Source: Chrysomallon squamiferum
Lineage: Eukaryota > Animalia > Mollusca
Assembly (NCBI GenBank): GCA_012295275.1
Contig: CM022670.1
Span: forward strand, 23,808,001-23,872,000
Reading direction: 5' to 3'
Length of the DNA: 64,000 nucleotides
Part shown: one piece after another, positions 31,837 to 62,984 of the stretch
Numbering within the stretch: position 1 is the stretch's first letter
Layout of the letters: every line of letters begins with the position of its first letter
Program-made: the position numbers and the translations under genes
The notes under the pieces: generated by a model
The model's database searches: none
Told to the model about the DNA's origin: nothing
Seen by the model: the letters and a program-made list of their open reading frames with translations, nothing else

Positions 31837-34800
31837 ATGGCATCTTACAATAACACATGTGAAAAATGCTGGGAATCTCCTGATGAAAAAAGAAAAAAGT
31901 GAGTTATTACAATAAAAAGGTGTTACACTATTTAATTGGAACACTTACTGATTTAGAAACATCAAAATCTGATTATTGTTAGTATGGATTTTGTTCTGTG
32001 ATAAATATATTTTGCCAGTGGTTTTTATAAAATATGGACTCTGTGATAAGTATTATGTATTTGAGATGACATTTAACATAGGTGAAAAATATTTCACTAT
32101 ATGTTCTTATTTTCAGTAGTACTGTAGAACTGTTTCTGTACAGTATATGATTTTTCTGAATTTGATCATTTTATTTTAGACAAAATTCTGTTTGTCGTAT
32201 GGAATACAATATATGATTTTGTCATTGAATCATCCAGATTGGAAAATAATGAAGAAAACACACCAATTACAAGGAAACGTTGGAAGACAGAGATTAGAAA
32301 AAAGACACCAGTGGAAAGTGGACAGATTAGTCCATTAAGCAACTCTGATAGTGAGGCACCTTCTTTTAACATCAAATCATTTTATGGGTCAACACCAGAC
32401 AGTAAAGTTTCAGCCTTGAGGAAGTCACCAAGGCTGATTTTGGAGAAATGCGATATGCAGCATAAGACCAGCAACACAGAATTCATGAGTTCGAGTATGA
32501 ATGGATTTACAAAATACCTAAGAAAAAAATCTGATACATCATCAGTTTCTGCTGTTGTGAATAAACAGAAGAATCGAAGGAAAATTTCATCAGGTAAAAA
32601 TTTGTGTGTTATCAGCAGAAAAAACCGAATTGTCACGAGCAAGTACAAAAGACTTCCATTTAATGTAGTCACATCTCGGAAGACAGATGAGAACATTTCA
32701 TATACACGGGAGAATATTTTTGTCACAAAAGATCCAGAGGGTGATTCGAGCCCAGCCACCTCTGAAAACAGAAAAAAATTCTTTAAAAACAGGTGTCCAT
32801 CATCATCCGCTGTATCACTAGGTAGCATCGTTATTAGAAAAGGTTTTGATTTGAAGTTCGTGCCTCACAGACTCAGTGGGAAATTTATGAAGGTGGGAAA
32901 GAAAGTGGCCAAGAAGGAACGACAGAGTCCAAAGAATTCAGGAAAGAAAATTATTAAAGATTTAATGGACTCTGAAAAACCCAGGTTCAGATTTGATTTA
33001 AAAAATCATATTCAGTCACCTGGTAACAGTGCAGCTGAATCAGACATTTTAGATTCATTGTCCAGTGAAAAAATTGCTACAGACGGGGAACTGATCAGCT
33101 GTTCTCCAGTATCTAGCATATCTTGGTTAAGTGAAATCCAGCCAAATGTGTCTCACTGTCATGAGATGACTACAGGGTCACAAGAACTTTTCAGTTCTGA
33201 TGGAAGATCAGAAGTGTCAGGCATCACAAATTCTTCTGAAAAGACTGATAATGATGGACAAACAACTGGAAAGAAACTTTTTCCAGTTTTTGATATTAAC
33301 TCTCGGACTTATAGGTAAGTTTTATAACATGAAAATAGAGGTTTTATATTTGCATAATTAATAAGATCAGTAAGTTATTTTTGATAGGTTCAGAATTACC
33401 AATTTATACTGTAAAGAGGTGGGTGGGTGTCTGTGCTTGGGGTTCAAACTTGACCTAAAAAATAAGAAGTGACTTCTCCCTCTAGACACAATAGTGAAGA
33501 GGAAATCAGACAAAACACCATATTTTTTTTATTTAAACACAATGCATATCTTTGTACACATCACTGAACATTTCAGTATTTCACTGTATTGTTCAGTTGT
33601 ATTCTCATGTTTATTTATGATTGCTTGCAGCCTACTAACATGTGTCTCAGACCCCTACTTGCATAATTTCATAGTAATATAATCTGTAATTATGTGCATC
33701 TCAGTTAATGAAATTTGTATACAAATTTTAAAGAACTCCACATTTCTGTCGGCTAACTGAATGGTGCGAGACAATTCATGTTTGTTGTTGTTAACATTTT
33801 TCTGTGAAACTGGCAGAGCAAACAAAGAAAGCCTGTTGATGATCTCTACACCATTTTCTGTGAAAGTGATGAAACTTAACGTGCTCGTGGTTTATTTATT
33901 CAGCCCTTTGCACAACAGATGTGGATGAGCAATACATTTTTTGTTTTTCTCTAATGATTTATAAATAGAAATAATTTAAGAGAAATAACTCAAGTATGCT
34001 AGCCAGTTGGAAAATAATGTCACAGGATCATTGACAAAAAAAGAGGCAAAATTTACTGAAAACAATCAAGATGACTTAGAATTTTTTGCCTTGTGTTAAT
34101 AGTATGCTGAAGTTTAGTGCAAAAGGACGAGTGTTTCGCCCTTGTCACTCTTTAGTGTAAAAGAAATGTTAAATAATGTACTGTTTATAAGTTACATTAT
34201 TCCCTAGAAATGATAATAAAATAACCAAATCAGACTACAAAATAATGAATGATATACTTAACTTCTTTCAAAAACTAATAGTTATAGAATTTGCACTAAT
34301 GAAGAAATCTTGCAGAAATAGTATTAATCCTTAATGATAGTAGATAAATCAAATCATTTAAGAATTTTAGCTGTTGAATTGGTTTAAAGTTATTAACATT
34401 GCTGCTTTTTTAATTTTATTTTATTATTATTATTATTTATTTTTTTTATCCTGTCAAATTATATCTTTATTTAATTGATTTTTCAGTCCTGAAACTTGTA
34501 AAATGATCCTGCGTTCTTCTACTCCAAAGATTCGTCCATTGGTCAGAGAAAAAGCAGGCATGGAGCAAATGATTCTAGTATGTTCAGTTTAATATATCTG
34601 AAGATAAAAAGTTGATAGACCATTTAAATTTATATAGTTATATGCAGATTTCATTTTTTTTTTTTAACAATCTGATTGTTACAAAAGAGTTTATTACCGA
34701 TTCTAAAACAGTGTGTTAATACCATAAAAATTAATAAATTGGATAATTTAATTTAAACTTCTTTTTTTTTCTTTTTTCTTTGTTGATTTGAAATATATTC

Positions 34801-37015
34801 AGGATGCGGGACAGAAGAAGTTTGGCGCTGCTCATTGTAACGTCTGCGGGATGGTGTACACACATGCTGATGCCACTGATGAAACAACTCATGCCAAGTT
34901 TCACCAGGGATTCTTAAACGCCCTGAAATTTCCTGTGAGTAGTAACTTAGTTATTAAATGAATCTGATTCCCCCCCCCAAAAAAAACCAGGTAAACCTTT
35001 ACTAATCCACATAATACTTAATGCTTATCTTTCATTATTATCCAGATTTTGTGATTTGTGTGATATTTAAAGGTGTGATGAAGTGGTTAGCTGTTGTTTA
35101 GAAGTGATCATCCAGAATGTTAAATATATTTATTAACACTGAAACAAAAAAAAAACATCTAGCTTTCTTTAGTAATGATTAGTTTTAAAAACCTATGTTT
35201 TATTAATTTTTGAACATTATACACTTAATAAATTGTTAGTGTTATTTTTAATATTTACATATATATGACTGAAATATTAAATGTTTTAAATGTTTAGGGC
35301 TGGAAGAAGGAACGGGTGGTGCAGGAGTTTCCTGTTGAAGGAAGTCGAGTGATAATGGTCTTGCATGATGATCCAAAATATGCAACTAAGAAGGTAATGA
35401 TTATTAATTGTTTTATTACTTTGTTTCTTTGTTTTTCAGTCCTTTTTTAAAAATTTTATTATTATTATTATTATTATTATGGAATAGTATAACAATAGAT
35501 ATTTAGAGCATGAAAGAAATTCTGAAAAGAAGTGATGCCTTTTCTTTTCTTTTTTTTCACTTTTTTTCTTAGATTGAAGAAATTAACAGAATCATGGGAC
35601 AGGAACTAGGATTTCCAGAGCAGACTTTAGCACTACGTCCAGCTTTCAAGGTGACGTCAAATTCTTTCATATGTTAAAAGCTGTTTCCAAATCCAGCCAA
35701 TATCCATGAGAGATTTATCAAATCCCATGATAAATGCTTTTCTGTATAAAATTTTATCAATAAGTTTAGACCAGTTAACTATTATTATCAGAATTTTAAA
35801 TATCCTTGCATAAATTCATTTATATATTCTTTGATTTTTTGTTTATTTTTTTGGTTTACAGGTTTGTTATTTATTTTATTATTATTATTTATATTTTTTT
35901 TTTCATTCTTTAAATTTCATTTCATTATTGCTCTATTTCTTTTATTATTATTATTTTAGGCTTTTCTCTATATATCAGATGAAAAGACAATAGATGGTTG
36001 CTGTATTGCTGAACCAATAACAGAGGTAACTTACATAATATTGAAGAATGATCTATTAAATTTTAATTTTTAAATCAAATATATATATATATCTTTTTTT
36101 TAATAAATCAAAAATTATCATTTTAACAGAATCATTTATTTATTATTTATAAAAAAAATTTAAATGGTAATTCGGGAGATCCTGACCTAATCTAGAAAAA
36201 TCACAAAATTTTAACTTAGTGCAATGTCTGTCCCACTTGGAACATCATCTCCATGAATTATTAAATAACATTAAACAAATAAATAAAATTATTTTTGTTA
36301 AAGAAGGAAGAAAACTAACCAAAAGCAGTTTTATATTTAAAATTGATATTGTTTCACTGGAATGTTTCAAATATTATTTTGCAACAGGGTTACAGGGTAA
36401 TTCCAGACATGGAAGCAAATTTTCAACATGGTGAACGAAGACCGTGGTGCTGTGAGACAGAACCAGAGCCAGCTGCAGTAGGAATCAGTCGAATCTGGGT
36501 TTGTGCTATGCAAAGACACAAAGGAATTGCAACCAGACTGGTCGACACTGTCAGGTGATATGAATAGACAAAAAGTTTTTTTTTTTAATTAATTGTAATA
36601 ATGTTGAATGGTGCATTTTTCTACAAGTGTTCTTTAAAGCAGATTTCAAAAACTTATTAGTATATTATTTTTTTTTATATTGTCAGAAATCCAGCAAACA
36701 CCTGCAAAATAAAAAAAATTCTCAGTATTGTTAAAATACCTCAAGCTTTAACATAATGTACTAATTTATTTTACAGTTAACCTTATATTTTTTAAATTTA
36801 TTTATTTATTGATTTTAACTGAAACTACTATAGTATTTGTTCTTAATTTTAGACAATGTTTTGAATATGGCATTCTTATTGAGAAAGAAAAAACTGCATT
36901 TTCTGACCCTACACCAGATGGAAGAGCTTTTGCTACGAGATATGTTGGTACAGAATCTTTCCTGGTTTACAAATACAGACCATCAAAGGAAATCAATTTC
37001 TCTCAAGAGTTATAA
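31837..37015 (+). CDS. ESCO2: Cohesin N-acetyltransferase ESCO1/2 (Eco1 family), about 643 aa, 9 coding exons
   Basis: Exons 31837-31898, 32238-33314, 34487-34577, 34803-34934, 35298-35393, 35573-35650, 35960-36025, 36388-36554, 36853-37015; 1932 nt, in frame. Long basic disordered N-terminus, PIP-like QMILDAGQK, C2H2 finger CNVCGMVY..DETTHAKFH, GWKKERVV, and acetyltransferase motifs GISRIWV..R.KGIATRLVD and AFSDPTPDG. ESCO1 versus ESCO2 orthology cannot be resolved from the sequence. Confidence 0.92.
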
Positions 37016-39213: not shown

Positions 39214-39269
39214 AATAAGTTATCCTGACAATATATATATATATATATATATTGTCAGGATAACTTATT
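39214..39269. repeat. Perfect 56-bp palindrome in the DDX43-like 3' UTR
   Basis: aataagttatcctgaca-(at)11-tgtcaggataacttatt. Confidence 0.95.
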
Positions 39270-39334: not shown

Positions 39335-53867
<14,533 letters not shown>

Positions 53868-54016
53868 GGCTTTTGACAGAAACTCACTGAACTTCCGCTT
53901 TTTAACCATGTGAAAATAAAGAGATTGTAAATGCCTCGAGCATTTTTAACAAACAATTACGCAGCAGCTTTACATTTATCGACTGGTTTGATCATTTCAG
54001 TGGAAAAACAACGAGA

Positions 54017-54650
54017 GACAAAAGCTCCCCAGTGAGAAAAACATTAGGACAAAAGCTCCCCAGTGAAAAAAAAAATTAGGTAGGACAAAAGCTCACCCTA
54101 TACATAAAAACAAGGTAGTACAAAGGCACACCAACTTAAACAAAAACAAACAAAAACAAAACAAAATTATATCACTGTTTAATATAATCATGGAATTAAT
54201 ATAATTAGTTATTCGTTCAAGTTATCTAGTTGTGATCAGCTTTAATAACTAACTTTAAAAATAATCCATAAAGCCATGACATCTGGAGTTTTCATCAGTT
54301 TTTGTATTATTTTTTGAAATTATATTCAGTTCTGAAAAAGGCAGAATTTCTAAAACATACTGAGGTACGTTTTTTTCATTTCGCGAAATGTGATTGTGTG
54401 CTTTGAAGTCGGTTCTCTCATCAGATTGTATCCTTCATCTTAATTGTTATTATTTTCTGTTATTTCGTAGTAATTCATTATGTTGATCAAATAAACACAT
54501 TAAATTGACAATCATGCCATTATTAAACTTGTTTTGATAAATATATAAAGTATGCATGCTTTAATAAAGTTGTTGTTTGCAGTTTTCTTCATTCAAACAG
54601 TAAGTTCAGGGATTATACATATTGTTTAGTGGAGGGTTTTGAGGTTTTTT
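54017..54650 (+). mobile_element. Non-autonomous DNA element with subterminal GGACAAAAGCTCCCC repeats, adjacent to the DDX43-like promoter
   Basis: Three to four tandem gacaaaagctcc(c)cag units at 54017-54135; internal homology to 51690-51850. Confidence 0.55.
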
Positions 54651-56236
54651 TAGGGATTGCTGAAACTGGTTATCTTATTAACTTAGTAATAATAACATTA
54701 GCAACACAATTTTAATGCTGCCTTAACACCGTACAAATTATTTGCATAAACATTTGTGTATACTCTGGTTAGTCACTGTCACACTGCAATCAGGTTTTTG
54801 ATACTTAGTAAATTTACTTTAAAAAGCCATAATATGTTATTAATTATTTTCTATATTTAATTAATCTGATTATCTATTTAAAAAACAACAACAAACAAAA
54901 ACAAGCTTGTTTTTTTTCATCAAAGATAATCTAAACTGCCTAATTTGTATCATGCTTGAAAGAAGTGTAAAAACATTTATGTTAATATATATATATATAT
55001 ATATATATATACTGAGTTGATATAAATTATCAGGAGTGCACATTTTGCCACCTTCTTTCATGTTCAGTATCGCTATTAGGGCAATCTTTATCAGTCATGC
55101 ATAGATCATTCCAATAAAATAACAACGAACCATGACTTTAACTAAGAAATTGTAACACAGGAAATGAATGCAGATCAACATTTATATTTTTAACTTTATT
55201 AATATTGTGTAATAATATAACCATAAATTTTAAGCATTAGAAGAAATGAAATATTACTTTAACCTCTTTGGCCTATTCAGATCGGTTTTTTGTATTTGGC
55301 GAAAGACTGGAAATCAATGCATGGTGTTCACTTTTCTTCTGTATTTATTTTAAGCTCATAATTTTGTTTTTCAGTTTATGGTTCAGTTTTAATGCATGTG
55401 TTTATATATAGATTATAGTTATCAGATTACTAACCTTAACCCTTAATTTTTATGTTTTAGGTATATTTATTCGGAACATCACATTTTTTGCAGATCTGTA
55501 AAATTATCGGTATTATTTTCACTGGTAAAATAAAAACTACCCCAATTTATAAACAATACAACCCCCTTCCCTAAGTATTAATTATCGGTAACTTAACACC
55601 CTTTTGGATACATTTAAAGTACTTTTCTTTATTAGTAATAGAAGTAACATTAGGAGGGTGTTTCACTCACAATTTTACGCGAACAATCCAATGACAGAAC
55701 ATGACGAAATGCCATTTGAAATGTAAATTTGTTTTAAATACAAGTCTTCATAACCCTTAATATACGTTTGTTACTAAAATAAAAGTAAAAAATATAATTT
55801 TTTGCATAACCCATTCCAAGTATCAATATTTCAAGGATGATCTTGTAAGTGCTAGATGTCAATCAACTGTCACCAGTTTTAAGGTAGGTTATTTCTAAAA
55901 TGCATTAGAATATACCATTCGTTATAATTACAAGTGGAGAAAAAAACAATTAGCCAGCGTTATCAAATTTGAGGTAAATTTTCTGAAGTACAATCTTGGA
56001 AACTAAAAATAACAGCAACCTTATTTTGCCGATAAGCCATTGTCAACGAAATAAAAATTTAACTGTTATAAAGATAAACCATGTCTCACTGCAACAATTT
56101 ATTGTTAAAGATCAATTATCAGAAATTACATCACAAAATGTTCTCCATCTAAATAAGCTTTTTGTGTTTTCATTTACAAACGGCTTCAGAAACATTTTAA
56201 AATGAAAACGAACACTTCACTGAAGATACATTTGTT

Positions 56237-56242
56237 TTTATT
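56237..56242 (-). terminator. Poly(A) signal of the KH/CCHC gene
   Basis: AATAAA on the minus strand about 113 nt after the stop codon, followed by a GT/T-rich tract. Confidence 0.55.
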
Positions 56243-56354
56243 CGACATGATAAAACTGGTCTTCAAACCAGTGCACAATAAAGTCTAATCAATAGGTGAG
56301 TTGTTTGGACTGATGATAAATTTTTATCCAATCAATGAACAAAGTCTGCAAAGT

Positions 56355-59173
56355 CTAATAAGCATTGTCTGGACAATCGCGTGAAATGTGTCCCTCCTCT
56401 CCGCACTTGTAACAGGATCGGCTTCCTCCGCTACCACCACCACCACCACCGCTGCTGCCGCCCCCTACAATACACAATTTGAACAATGTCAACGTTTATG
56501 CTGAAAGACTTTTTTTTTTCAAGAAAACAGCTATATTGAATATGTCATTTAAATATGCATACTGGGCTTTTTGAAAATCAACTTACATACATCAACTATA
56601 AAGTTAAGGTGTGTACACCCATCCAATTCAGGAATCAAACGACATGTCCAATTTTATTAGAAACTTACCTCGGGAACCACCACCATCTGGACAATCTCTA
56701 GATATGTGTCCCTCTTCTCCACATTTGTAGCATGTTCGATTTCCGCCACCTGCTAAGAGCACAATATATATGTATGTATTATATATGTATATAGATATAT
56801 AAATAGATATAACATTTTATAAAATGCTCAACATCCATTACAAATTTTCCAGTCAATGTAAAATTAACAATTTCTTACCTCCTCCTCCTCCTCCTCCACG
56901 TCTACCAAAGCCACCTCCGCTGCCGCCACCTCTGTAAACAGAAATTGAAAGCACAATTAATATGAATTCTGACAATCTGAAATTGATTTCATCTAAAGAA
57001 AATATTTTGTTAATTTTTTTTTTTTTTTTTACACAAGATTAAAAAGAAAAATTCATATTATTCAGAGTGCTATTGTAACTAATATACTAACCTGTAATCA
57101 TCTCCATTACTGTAACCGTATCCTGAAAAGAAAAAAGACAAATGTAAGATTGTATTTATTTGTAGTTTAAATGGTGCAGACTCCGCACTTCAGAATTGTT
57201 TTGGCAAAAGCATGCTGTTCAGGTTACGTATTCCATGGAAGTTTACAATTTGTTTTTAAAAGAAAATTAAAATGTGCCAAATTTATACATCTACTAATGA
57301 AGTATTTTTACACCATTATAATAAAATGTCAGATCATCCAACTTGTTTGCAAATTACTTTAACAAAATTAGTAGACAATCATAAATTTGGCACTTCACTT
57401 TACAATTTTTGGTTAGTTCAAAAAAAAAGCCATCAGCTCTTGCGTTAACAGTGCTGAATGTTCTGGTGAACTGCAAAAACATGAGGTGCAACTTACCTCT
57501 ATATTATTAACATGCATGATCTTGAATCAAAAAAGGATAAAGGAAAAACAGCTTTTGATGCTGGCCAATAGTTTTCTGGAATAACTGGTCCCGCACTTTC
57601 TGCATCAAGCAGAGGCACTGCACTTGCTGGTCAAAAAAATGTAACTATCTATGTTATCTTCCAACTATTACAATGATTTAGTTTTAGAAGAAATACTGTG
57701 CAGACAAGGATTCAGTTTATGACAATTTGGTAAGGATTGTAATATTTAGTAACAAACAGGCTGTCTGCATTTACTTACTGCTCATGTCAGTAGTATCGGA
57801 GGTCTTTAATGGGCTGACATTTTACTCAAAGCTAAACAGTCAGCCGGAGTTAAACCCCACCACCCACAACAAGTTATGATACTATTAAATTTTAACCGTG
57901 CTCACTTTTTTCACAAACCAAAAAAGTGCAGACAGTTTTATTATTAGTAATTAATGTAGTAAATCTTTTAAAAGTTACCTCCTCCACGATCACCTCCATA
58001 TTGCCTGAAAATGGAAAAATATATTTTCAAGTTATATTCAAAAAGGTCATTTATTATATTAACATTTGAAGCTAGCATTAACGATTTGAAATTGATATTA
58101 ACAGGTCAAATTTTTTTTGTACATACCTGTCACCATATCCTTCACCTGAAAAATTAAATAAAATATGTTAATGTACAATTCATTTGAACTAATGACAGCA
58201 TTTTAGATTTTAAACTGGTTCAGCAATATCGAGGTTTTAACTGAATGTAAACTTGAATCACAACTACTTACTGTTAAGTGTAATATTTTCAATCAAATCT
58301 TTTGCTCTTATTTGTGAGTCTTGGTCGCCTGTGATTTCAACTTTGACTTGTTCACCTCGTTGAACATCTCTGCTGTATACCTGAAAAATCAGAAATATGT
58401 ATTTTACAACTGTTCAATGTACAGATTCAAATTCATAAAATTTTATGTCCCAGAAAGTTCCATTTAGACTTATTCCTACAATAAGCCAAGTAAAGTTTAA
58501 CTTCAATACATACTTTTATGTTGGCTCCACTTTCATTCTGTAAATCCCTTATTTTGGAACCACCTTTGCCTGAAAGTAAATTAAAACGATGAAATACATT
58601 TACAAACTTCGTTTAATTTAAAAAAAAAAAAAAAAATTAATTTTTTTTTAAACAAATTAAAAAAAGAAAAAGAAAAACTGAAGAGATTTTCTGTTTTAAT
58701 GAAATACATATACACATATAAAAATAATCGTTTCTCAAATCATGTAACAAAACCTGAAATTTTACCACCATTTTCAATTGATACACTGTGGTTCGTTTCG
58801 GTGAATGATAGGACCCAAAAGTACTATTACTAGTCGAGACAAAAGAAATTTGAAAATTACTTTTTTTCAAACAGTACAGGAATCCTTTATTGAACAGTTT
58901 TAATTAAAGAATTTTATTAATAAAAGTTTATATTCCACATGGAAAGATTTAAATGGAATAAAATAGAGATAAAAGAAAATATGGATCCAAATGTCCAAAA
59001 AATAAAATGGCGGAAATTTTACCTATAATTCTGCCAACATCTTTTTGTTCTATATAGAAAGATGTGGAATTGCCGGAGTCTCCTCCATATTCGCGCGAAC
59101 GCCAATCTGATCTTTCTGTACTAGTACCTCTTCCTCTTCCAGAAAAACCACCGGAGTAACCTCGGCCGTCCAT
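56355..59173 (-). CDS. Helicase-less DDX43 N-terminal paralogue: KH domain + Gly/RGG region + two CCHC zinc knuckles, 211 aa, 9 exons
   Basis: Exons (minus): 59173-59023, 58569-58514, 58380-58272, 58145-58127, 58004-57979, 57122-57092, 56931-56879, 56749-56669, 56464-56355(TAG). Total 636 nt, all GT-AG, open frame. Protein: [16 protein letters not shown]...[68 protein letters not shown]...[27 protein letters not shown]...[29 protein letters not shown] (minus strand) at 56242-56237. Confidence 0.88.
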
Positions 59174-59189
59174 AATTTTATGTGTGCGG

Positions 59190-59400
59190 GTACAGGCACG
59201 TGTGATCGGGACTGAGTAGTAAGTATGCAGAACAGAGAACTTGTTGTTGTGGCTCTTCTTCGTCTTAACACTGGTGGTTTCCTCCTAAGTAAACGGGGCT
59301 GATCCTTTAAATTTCACGTTGTAGTGATTAAGATTGTCATGTGACCTGAAAGCGGCTAAAATCATTGGTTCAGCTGATACACTTCAGAAAATCCGTGCAA
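59190..59400 (-). promoter_or_regulatory. Promoter/5' UTR of the KH/CCHC gene (divergent from MRGBP)
   Basis: CpG-retaining region with an E-box CACGTG at 59197-59202, GTCATGTGAC at 59336-59345, and CCAAT on the minus strand near 59364-59368. Confidence 0.45.
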
Positions 59401-60928: not shown

Positions 60929-62984
60929 ATGGAGGAAACCCGGATAAATTGGAATGTAGATATGGAAGTAAATTTGTTTCATGCGATACGTCATCATAAA
61001 CCAGTTGGTAGGATGTTCTTAAAAATTGCACTAATGGTATAATTAGGTGCATTTAAGAAACTGATGCAAGGTTATATCAAAATAACGAAAATAATATAAA
61101 TAAAATTCACATATTCTTGATTATTGATATAATTAATAAATAAGATATATTATACAGTATTATACTCATACTGTATACTCTATAGAGTAGTATAGTCTAT
61201 GGAGTATCGACTGTAGTGATACTAATAGTAATACTATTAGTATGTAGATGCAGACACTGTCTGAGAATATCATTGTAAAGTCATTGTGCAATTTTAATTT
61301 TTATTTCTAACTATGGATATGATTCTAATATTCTAGAAATACATATTGTGACTGATTTTCAGTTGTACCCTAATGATTGGTCTTATTGAAAATTAGCACA
61401 AGGACGTTATAAAGACCATGTATCATATAAATCTATTAGCATTTACACCAAGATTATAGGCAGATCCTTGATATATGCATTACTGTTAAAACTAAAGGAT
61501 AAATGTTAGTGAAAATAGTATTTTTAAAATGTTGGCTATTTTTATAAAAGCTTGTTCAGTTGTTTGGTGTATTTAAGTCACTGTCAACAATAATGTCTTC
61601 TAAAGTTCATTTATGAGGAAATTACAGTTTTCCTTTTTGATTACATAACAACCACTGAATTAAACAGTAATAGGTACTGTAATTATCACTAAGAATTATC
61701 TTAATTTGTGTTATAATGTAAATAAAATTCTGAATTATTTTTTTACCTTTTTGCAGGTGTAAACAGATTTTTTCAGATGATTTTTATTCATGATAAATTA
61801 AATGCTGCACATAGTGGTTTAAAGACATTTACTTGCAAGCAGATTTGGGACCACTTGAGTGAAATGTATGACTTACAAGCATTAGTAAGTAATTTCATAT
61901 GTACAGTTTCTTAATTATAAAATTTAATTTGAGGATAAGGAATTTCTAACATTTTGAATAAGATAATAGTTTAGTGAAAAAAGAGATAAAGAAGTTAGTG
62001 TTCTCACTTAATCTCAGTAATGAACTGTTGTATTCATCGCAGACATTGCCCAGTACAAAACAGTGATTTTTCATTTCTGTATGCAGTGAGAAAATTTCCA
62101 TTATATATTTTAAAAAAATCCATCAGGAAACCTATATTAAAAGGTAACTATTTAGCAAATTTATGAATATTTTGCATAGAAGCCTAATTTTAACAGAACA
62201 GAACAATTTTTTGTGTGCTTAACCAGCAATAGTCCTAGATAATACTTTAAAAATGTACTGAACTTATATTCCTCTGGGTGAGTGCATTTTTTTAAATTTC
62301 TGTTTTGATACAACTTTTTCTTTTCAGAATGAATCTGAAAACTTCCCATTTCCAAACAAGTTGTCTGAATTCTCTTTACCTGACGAGTATTCTGCTCTGA
62401 TGCAAAAACCATTTCCTCGCCAAGAATGTTCAGGAGGACACCAAGATGATAAATCTGATTGTAAGAATGATCTTTGAAAACTTTTTTGTTGAAAATATAA
62501 TTCTTTGCCTTCTACCAGGCAACTGTTGTAATATTCAATTTGTTTGATGATGAATGGAGAAAAAAAGACCAAAAAACCCTGAATGTTTAACTGTCTTCAG
62601 CCACATTTTTACATTAATGATTATTATTATTTTTTTAAATTTTATTTTCCAGCAAAAAGCACAAAGTCTGAAGCAAAATCTAATGTGTCTTCACACGTAA
62701 CAAAAAATGAGTCCAAAGGTTCTTCCTCACAAAAAACTGACAGTAAATCTTCATCACAAAAGTCTGAGACAAAATCATCAAGTACATCACACTGTAAAGA
62801 ACATAAAAGTGGCTCTGTACAACACAGTAGTAAATCTGACTCTAAAACTGCTTCACTGGGACATTCTTCTACAGCCAACACACCTGACCCATCACCAAAG
62901 AGAAAGAGAACTCGTCAAACTCAGTCAGCCAGTGCCAGTCCAGCCACACCTGATCAGCCTACTTTAAAAAGAGGTCGAAGATGA
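60929..62984 (+). CDS. MRGBP: MRG/MORF4L-binding protein (Eaf7 family, NuA4/TIP60 subunit), 223 aa, 4 exons
   Basis: Exons 60929-61007, 61757-61884, 62328-62460, 62653-62984; 672 nt. [33 protein letters not shown]...[36 protein letters not shown] matches the Eaf7/MRGBP signature. A Ser/Lys-rich tail ends in PKRKRTR...KRGRR. Confidence 0.92.

Follow-up and report, generated by a model that had tools for sequence, protein, structure and literature searches.

What is a gene doing beside a helicase when it carries the RNA-binding front of that same helicase and stops before the motor? The question is raised by a 64,000-nucleotide stretch of the Chrysomallon squamiferum genome (assembly GCA_012295275.1, contig CM022670.1, positions 23,808,001 to 23,872,000), hereafter the window. 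On its minus strand lies a DDX43-type DEAD-box helicase gene and, 2.5 kb upstream of it, a short gene whose predicted product combines a KH domain, a glycine/RGG-rich linker and two CCHC zinc knuckles. Judged from its sequence, the short gene is a real gene for a DDX43-derived KH-knuckle protein. Our preferred reading, to which we give a probability of about 0.5, goes further: the gene would be an intact duplicate whose KH-Gly/RGG-2xCCHC product has a motor-independent role as an RNA holder. The initial annotation described the two genes as a ‘motor plus motor-less partner pair’, and we treat that phrase as a hypothesis, together with any germline or granule role for the short protein and any competition with, or recruitment of, the helicase, DDX43 itself being a germline helicase.

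Spliced by coordinates, the minus-strand frame from 59173 to 56355 gives nine exons (151/56/109/19/26/31/53/81/110 nt) with a coding length of 636 nt, that is, 211 amino acids and a TAG. All eight introns are GT-AG, in phases 1,0,1,2,1,2,1,1. The protein runs from a 38-residue RG-rich leader through the KH domain (exons 1-3) and a Gly/Tyr/RGG linker, spread over four micro-exons, to the two knuckles, both of which pass the Pfam zf-CCHC threshold; 28% of its residues are glycine and it holds four RGG motifs. The intact nine-exon frame with two CCHC knuckles proposed in the initial annotation is thus confirmed. The first polyadenylation signal, AATAAA, lies at 56242-56237, and another five occur as far as 55200. 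In the list below, P0005 is the DDX43 of Gigantopelta aegis (XP_041358597.1).

59023..59173, minus strand: exon 1 (ATG, RG-rich leader, start of KH), matching residues 20-53 of P0005
58514..58569, minus strand: exon 2 (KH GKGG loop and helix), 95% to P0005
58272..58380, minus strand: exon 3 (remainder of KH), 84% to P0005
58127..58145, minus strand: exon 4 (19-nt micro-exon, Gly/Tyr linker), from coordinate splicing
57979..58004, minus strand: exon 5 (26 nt, RGG linker), from coordinate splicing
57092..57122, minus strand: exon 6 (31 nt), z 5.1 against helicase exon 6
56879..56931, minus strand: exon 7 (Gly/RGG tract), from coordinate splicing
56669..56749, minus strand: exon 8 (CCHC knuckle 1), Pfam zf-CCHC E 1e-10
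56355..56464, minus strand: exon 9 (CCHC knuckle 2 and TAG, terminal), Pfam zf-CCHC E 5e-10 and splice-site scan
55195..56242, minus strand: candidate 3' UTR with six AATAAA (56242, 56103, 55633, 55471, 55349, 55200), from hexamer positions

The neighbour had been called a DDX43-like helicase, and it is one. Its gene has 26 exons on the minus strand (53867-39335). A search with exon 17 returned 47 proteins from 84 candidates; those with names were nearly all mollusc DDX43/DDX53, and P0005 was the best named full-length match. Identity to P0005 is 90% before a frame break in exon 17 and 85% after it. Motifs Q, I, Ia, Ib, II, III, V and VI are all present, and the core differs from P0005 at 39 of 439 positions. 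On similarity alone, the animal is most likely a gastropod near Gigantopelta.

48579..53867, minus strand: DDX43 exons 1-8, a KH-Gly-1xCCHC module with the faster-evolving KH, from splicing and KH comparison
39335..48170, minus strand: DDX43 exons 9-26, linker and DEAD-box core with all core motifs, 85-90% identical to Gigantopelta DDX43
44352..44494, minus strand: DDX43 exon 17, whose frame is broken by a single base near 44395 in this assembly

How are the two genes related? A one-to-one correspondence of their first eight exons had been proposed. In size and phase it holds throughout, the helicase exons measuring 142/56/109/22/29/31/23/72 nt with identical intron phases. At the sequence level it holds in part: pairs 1, 2, 3, 6 and 8 align well over shuffles (z 5.1-14.4), pairs 4 and 5 align weakly (z 2.2 and 3.7), and pair 7 does not align (z 0.1). 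Exon 2 is identical at 16/18 amino acids and 48/56 nucleotides, and none of the seven paired introns rises above shuffles (z -1.4 to 0.1), both in agreement with the initial annotation. An assembly duplicate of one locus can be ruled out, because the introns are unrelated and dS is 1.5.

Both copies carry an intact GxxG loop (GKGG and GRGG) and both bear the mark of purifying selection. Over the 66 codons of KH the copies differ by pS 0.65 and pN 0.09, which by the Nei-Gojobori method gives dS 1.50, dN 0.098 and a dN/dS of about 0.065, imprecise since dS is near saturation. Including the knuckle brings dN/dS to 0.05 and pN/pS to 0.13 (bootstrap 0.06-0.21). Ratios of 0.05-0.07 lie far from a value near 1 and bear out the earlier view of an old duplication with both copies selected; silent changes since the duplication amount to about 0.75 per site per branch. 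In simulations with an assumed indel rate, a neutral copy kept its frame and splice sites with p 0.026 after 0.03 substitutions per site and in 0/4000 trials after 0.1. The short unit has been maintained as coding sequence through nearly all its history. Altogether, the comparison supports a short gene that is an old partial tandem duplicate of the DDX43 5' module.

Divergence since then has been asymmetric. The short KH is identical to that of Gigantopelta DDX43 at 60/66 residues and the helicase KH at 52/66. Changes unique to one sequence number zero in the short gene, eight in the helicase and three in Gigantopelta (p 0.008). Measured against its own core, the helicase KH has changed faster (14/66 differences from Gigantopelta versus 39/439, Fisher p 0.005), whereas the short KH, with 6/66, differs at the core rate. 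As for the knuckles, Gigantopelta DDX43 has three, the short protein two and the helicase one, and the short protein shares the form GEEGH with Gigantopelta, where the helicase has GQQGH. The terminal exon with its second knuckle, TAG and AATAAA had been described as private to the short gene. The parts are there, but ‘private’ says too much, because the exon is a paralog of exon 8 (79% over 62 nt) and its knuckle matches the repeated Gigantopelta DDX43 knuckles at 16/17 residues; it is probably an ancestral knuckle exon that turned terminal. In KH trees (67 columns, 27 rows) the short, helicase and Gigantopelta domains form one clade (support 100/99). We infer that the short copy retained the ancestral KH module and that the helicase KH drifted.

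Could the two units be parts of one gene? A single DDX43 locus might use two alternative 5' modules, with upstream exon 8 (phase 1) joined to one of the helicase's phase-1 acceptors (exons 2, 4, 6, 8 or 9) and exon 9 serving as an alternative last exon. The phases are compatible, and such an arrangement would explain the core-like constraint on the upstream KH. Mollusc DDX43 proteins, moreover, have variable N-termini. Among 30 long homologs, the KH count lies between 0, in two partial models, and 6, with knuckles in 3/30. Across P0005-P0047 and P0170-P0179 it varies from one to six, and Haliotis and Mytilus isoforms differ in their number of KH repeats; seven isoforms are listed for abalone DDX43. 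Littorina (P0023) and Mizuhopecten (P0035) DDX43 read KH-2xCCHC-KH-DEAD within a single chain. These two, like the Haliotis and Mytilus proteins, share with the short gene a KH that leads into a Gly tract and a pair of CCHC knuckles. There the module precedes a second KH and the core within one annotated chain, whereas the short gene has its own stop. The fused form is not encodable here, because no splice donor follows the knuckle of exon 9 (splice-site scan) and helicase exon 1 has no acceptor: all 20 AG sites around it score below 0, against 3.6-17.6 for 33 real acceptors. A join from exon 8 would have to pass over a conserved terminal exon, then six AATAAA and another first exon. The start of the helicase, MTSCRGG, matches MTSFRGG of Gigantopelta, and a clade of short gene plus Gigantopelta is rejected (p-AU 0.025). 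We regard one locus with alternative modules as unlikely.

The short gene is likely to be transcribed independently. CpG lies above the window average at both ATG regions, and no further helicase-exon relics or core-like sequence were found between 56355 and 53867 (tblastn at E 1). Words sampled from 53500-59400 (606 in all) were present at 0.30-0.35 in four RNA runs of one study and at 0.80 in one run of unspecified kind; the expected shares are 0.03-0.07 for helicase exon 1 alone, about 0.14 for a short mRNA ending near 56220 and about 0.32 for one ending near 55180. The contigs behind these figures are without strand or end and possibly DNA, and we do not count them as evidence.

What would a separate, motor-less DDX43 module do? 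In one study, Bombyx DDX43 frees cleaved RNA from Ago3-piRISC, with Ago3 bound by the core, and its KH is needed for RNA binding and, independently of RNA binding, for ATP hydrolysis by the core (PMC8025031). A second study reports that the human DDX43 KH alone binds single-stranded UUGU/TTGT and dimerises when isolated, that the full-length protein is monomeric, and that the KH is proposed to act as a built-in single-strand binding protein (PMC7949032). As far as these studies go, KH is required for ATPase activity, unwinding and release of RNA from Ago3-piRISC, and is studied solely in cis (PMC8025031, PMC7949032).

Under our preferred reading of a motor-independent RNA holder, a tandem duplication of the DDX43 5' module would have taken place in a gastropod lineage near Gigantopelta, starting from an ancestor with KH, two or three knuckles and DEAD core. 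In the subfunctionalisation that followed, the ancestral KH would have stayed with the short copy along with two knuckles, leaving the helicase a single knuckle and a KH that relaxed, and the short product would have taken over the motor-independent RNA-binding role of the ancestral N-terminus. From the family, the KH is predicted to grip single-stranded U-rich RNA, as the human DDX43 KH does, the knuckle pair to grip G-rich single strands, and the Gly/RGG/Tyr linker to provide low-affinity multivalent granule contacts. On this picture the short protein would hold single strands of the RNA class served by DDX43, or act as a scaffold on them, independently of ATP, and it would meet the helicase via shared RNA and not as a fixed subunit. 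We favour a motor-independent role because the protein is without the Ago3- and ATP-binding part and keeps the single-strand binders and the multivalent parts.

Several points weigh against this reading. The RNA target, the granule location and the link to the helicase are all drawn from other species, and the short gene is known here from genomic sequence. The splice-site matrix behind the acceptor scores was trained on the short gene and the helicase themselves. Helicase and Gigantopelta form a clade with support 86/89, yet a clade of short gene plus helicase is not rejected (p-AU 0.26); the duplication may thus fall on either side of the Gigantopelta split, and orthology could account for part of the difference in rate. 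When two abalone sequences serve as outgroups, the helicase core, too, looks faster in the window lineage (21 vs 6, 18 vs 7), although with four other outgroups it does not. Lastly, a single word-based search (7983 candidates scored) brought up no short Gigantopelta counterpart among the best 120 of 223 matches, so that the short gene may belong to a single lineage or lack annotation in Gigantopelta.

The Bombyx result could also point to a more direct connection between the two proteins. The free KH could dock on the DDX43 core, either stimulating its ATPase in place of the drifted KH or displacing that KH in a dominant-negative manner. A KH needed for ATP hydrolysis independently of RNA binding (PMC8025031) would fit such a trans regulator, as would a free KH conserved like the core beside an attached KH that is not. 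The attached KH, however, is still intact and under purifying selection; full-length human DDX43 is reported to be a monomer (PMC7949032); and the published effect is one in cis, with no trans rescue reported in the accessible portion of the source (PMC8025031). We find direct regulation in trans as doubtful as alternative modules at a single locus.

A third possibility is that the helicase is truly broken and the short gene is its surviving RNA-binding module. As assembled, exon 17 has one extra base near 44395 and a stop nine codons on, and the N-terminal module of the helicase is the relaxed one. The break is, however, the sole lesion in 26 exons, the motifs are complete, and the frame is then open for 304 amino acids at 85% identity. 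With every other part of the gene intact and conserved, the break is likely an assembly error, a single-base error being the usual cause of such a lone frame break. A dead helicase is accordingly very unlikely. Least probable of all is a short unit that was long functional and is recently dead or unexpressed: exon 1 alone as query found no homolog among eight candidates, and the short protein itself is absent from that search and from the best 120 of 223 matches, but with no short-only amino-acid changes over about 157 replacement sites, any neutral period is limited to <0.02 substitutions per site, or about 2.5% of the span since the copies arose.

Is the holder proposed here for the window alone of its kind? 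The initial annotation knew of no counterpart to the KH+RGG+2xCCHC architecture; this did not stand, as the architecture occurs inside the Littorina and Mizuhopecten DDX43 proteins and, stand-alone, in P0111 and others. P0111 (199 aa) is KH-Gly-2xCCHC, in the same domain order and of the same size as the short protein; P0115 and L001 are KH-Gly-CCHC; Priapulus XP_014679702.1 is 2xCCHC-2xKH; and Nucella KAL8597743.1, P0093, P0098 and P0104 are 2xKH, all without a helicase. A KH motif was present in 15 of the best 120 of 223 matches, five of the 15 having knuckles as well. Among 52 listed metagenome loci, most of which are other KH proteins, at least five (L001, L002, L010, L018, L019) hold helicase-less KH frames that end in a stop and precede 439-1822 bases of non-coding sequence free of any DEAD core. 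P0098 and L018 belong to sequence clusters of six and three members. Because closed frames occur elsewhere, helicase-less DDX43-type KH products can persist, although the P0111, P0115, L001 and Priapulus records may each stem from a DDX43 model that was cut short or split. For P0111, no usable match came from ESM Atlas.

These proteins share with the short gene a DDX43-type KH, a Gly/RGG linker and the missing core, but by AU tests they are not its orthologs. Grouping the short protein with the Nucella group is rejected (p-AU 5e-6), as is grouping it with P0111 (0.04). One ancient stand-alone KH family is likewise rejected as a single clade (p-AU 0.0002), and the KH1 of the Nucella type groups with the KH1 of Littorina DDX43. 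Because the tests reject a single stand-alone clade, helicase-less DDX43 offshoots seem to have arisen more than once. The short protein ends in N-A-Y, and stand-alone 2xKH proteins (L002:46-627, L010:67-666, L019:128-703, P0140, P0054) finish Q-A/V/T-Y. As a separate observation, P0089 and P0169 (ENA records) have KH-2xCCHC fused in frame to retroelement-type aspartyl protease sequence, possibly by insertion or as a gene-calling artefact.

A broader idea, which we hold tentatively and think rather unlikely, is that DDX43 repeatedly sheds its KH module, with or without knuckles, as a free gene acting in trans on the helicase or its RNAs, and that this lets the attached KH relax. The cases would be this gastropod lineage, caenogastropods, priapulids and others, perhaps including the mammalian KHDC1/DPPA5/OOEP cluster. 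The core-proximal KH of Littorina DDX43 sits on a long branch (1.3), a possible parallel to the relaxed helicase KH of the window; two cases are a lead only. If shedding does recur, that long branch together with a conserved stand-alone 2xKH in the same group would be the second case.

Known families help to place the short protein. The nearest is DDX43/DDX53 (HAGE), through the KH, knuckles that match P0005 at 15-16/17 residues and the exon structure shared with the neighbouring gene; membership as a helicase is ruled out, since the frame stops after knuckle 2 in a terminal knuckle exon and has neither DEAD nor Helicase_C. LIN28, plant cold-shock Gly-rich 2xCCHC proteins and CNBP/GIS2 are single-strand binders. 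Such proteins make up much of the best 120 of 223 matches, with a single-strand binder, a Gly linker and CCHC, but they have a cold-shock domain or knuckles only and no KH, a likeness in working style only. Membership there is excluded as well, the short protein having two knuckles and a KH and not six or seven knuckles or a cold-shock domain. SF1/BBP (Msl5) has a KH followed by CCHC knuckle(s), but its KH is of the STAR type with QUA2 and comes after an N-terminal U2AF-binding part, whereas the short-protein KH is of the DDX43 type. The KH of P0005, which is 91% identical to the short KH, passes Pfam KH_1 at 52.9 bits and reaches 16.7 bits on PF22675 (cut-off 30); with that score and the 38-residue RG leader, SF1/BBP is ruled out.

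The mammalian genes KHDC1, DPPA5, KHDC3 and OOEP presumably adjoin DDX43 on human 6q13. The eutherian KHDC1/DPPA5/KHDC3(FILIA)/OOEP proteins carry a KH without a helicase and occur in oocytes and embryos (PMC3261892); DPPA5 maps to chromosome 6, as does DDX43 (PMC5068768). They may be a precedent for a free DDX43-derived KH, but their KH is atypical and they have no knuckles; PF16005 matches DDX43-type KHs weakly (19.8 bits for P0005, cut-off 30). The literature search found no description of a helicase-less DDX43 paralog, though subscription papers and supplements could hold one, and no paper joining DDX43 with a zinc knuckle, a mollusc duplication or the gastropod gonad. No solved structure with DDX43 KH and core together was present among the best 60 of 188 matches.

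That part of a gene with an accessory domain is duplicated is nothing unusual, and until the short protein has a demonstrated function the case is only moderately surprising; it deserves a closer look for its asymmetry and its recurrence. With a free, conserved KH-knuckle protein on one side and a helicase whose own KH has drifted on the other, the natural split amounts to a ready experiment on trans or motor-independent action. The case also speaks for a recurrent class of DDX43 offshoots without a helicase, so far undescribed and misnamed by annotation (e.g. ‘far upstream element-binding protein 2-like’).

The remaining features of the window flank the two genes or lie around their starts. 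Head-to-head with the short gene, about 1.7 kb away on the plus strand, are two pieces (60929-61009 and 62583-62984) that we take to be an MRGBP/Eaf7-like gene; they gave no Pfam match, including the 27-residue first exon at about 60929.

32128-37015, plus strand: ESCO1/2 acetyltransferase gene, tail-to-tail with DDX43, Pfam PF13880
16451-19250, plus strand: choline transporter-like (SLC44) exons, Pfam PF04515
59336..59345, minus strand: E-box-like motif upstream of the short gene in a CpG-retaining 5' region, eye-picked and weak (8/100 shuffles match somewhere in the window)
53891..53898, minus strand: ETS-like motif directly upstream of the helicase ATG, eye-picked and weak (16/100 shuffles match)

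Three observations concern the surroundings of the helicase. The most CpG-rich stretch of the window (53300-53600) lies in helicase intron 1, just past exon 1, where it may act as a promoter element or mark a small insertion. A 300-nt element, probably a dispersed mobile element, occurs in two copies that are 75% identical, one between the genes (54294-54588) and one in helicase intron 1 (51552-51851). The DDX43 3' UTR contains a perfect 56-nt palindrome (39214-39269) around an AT run.

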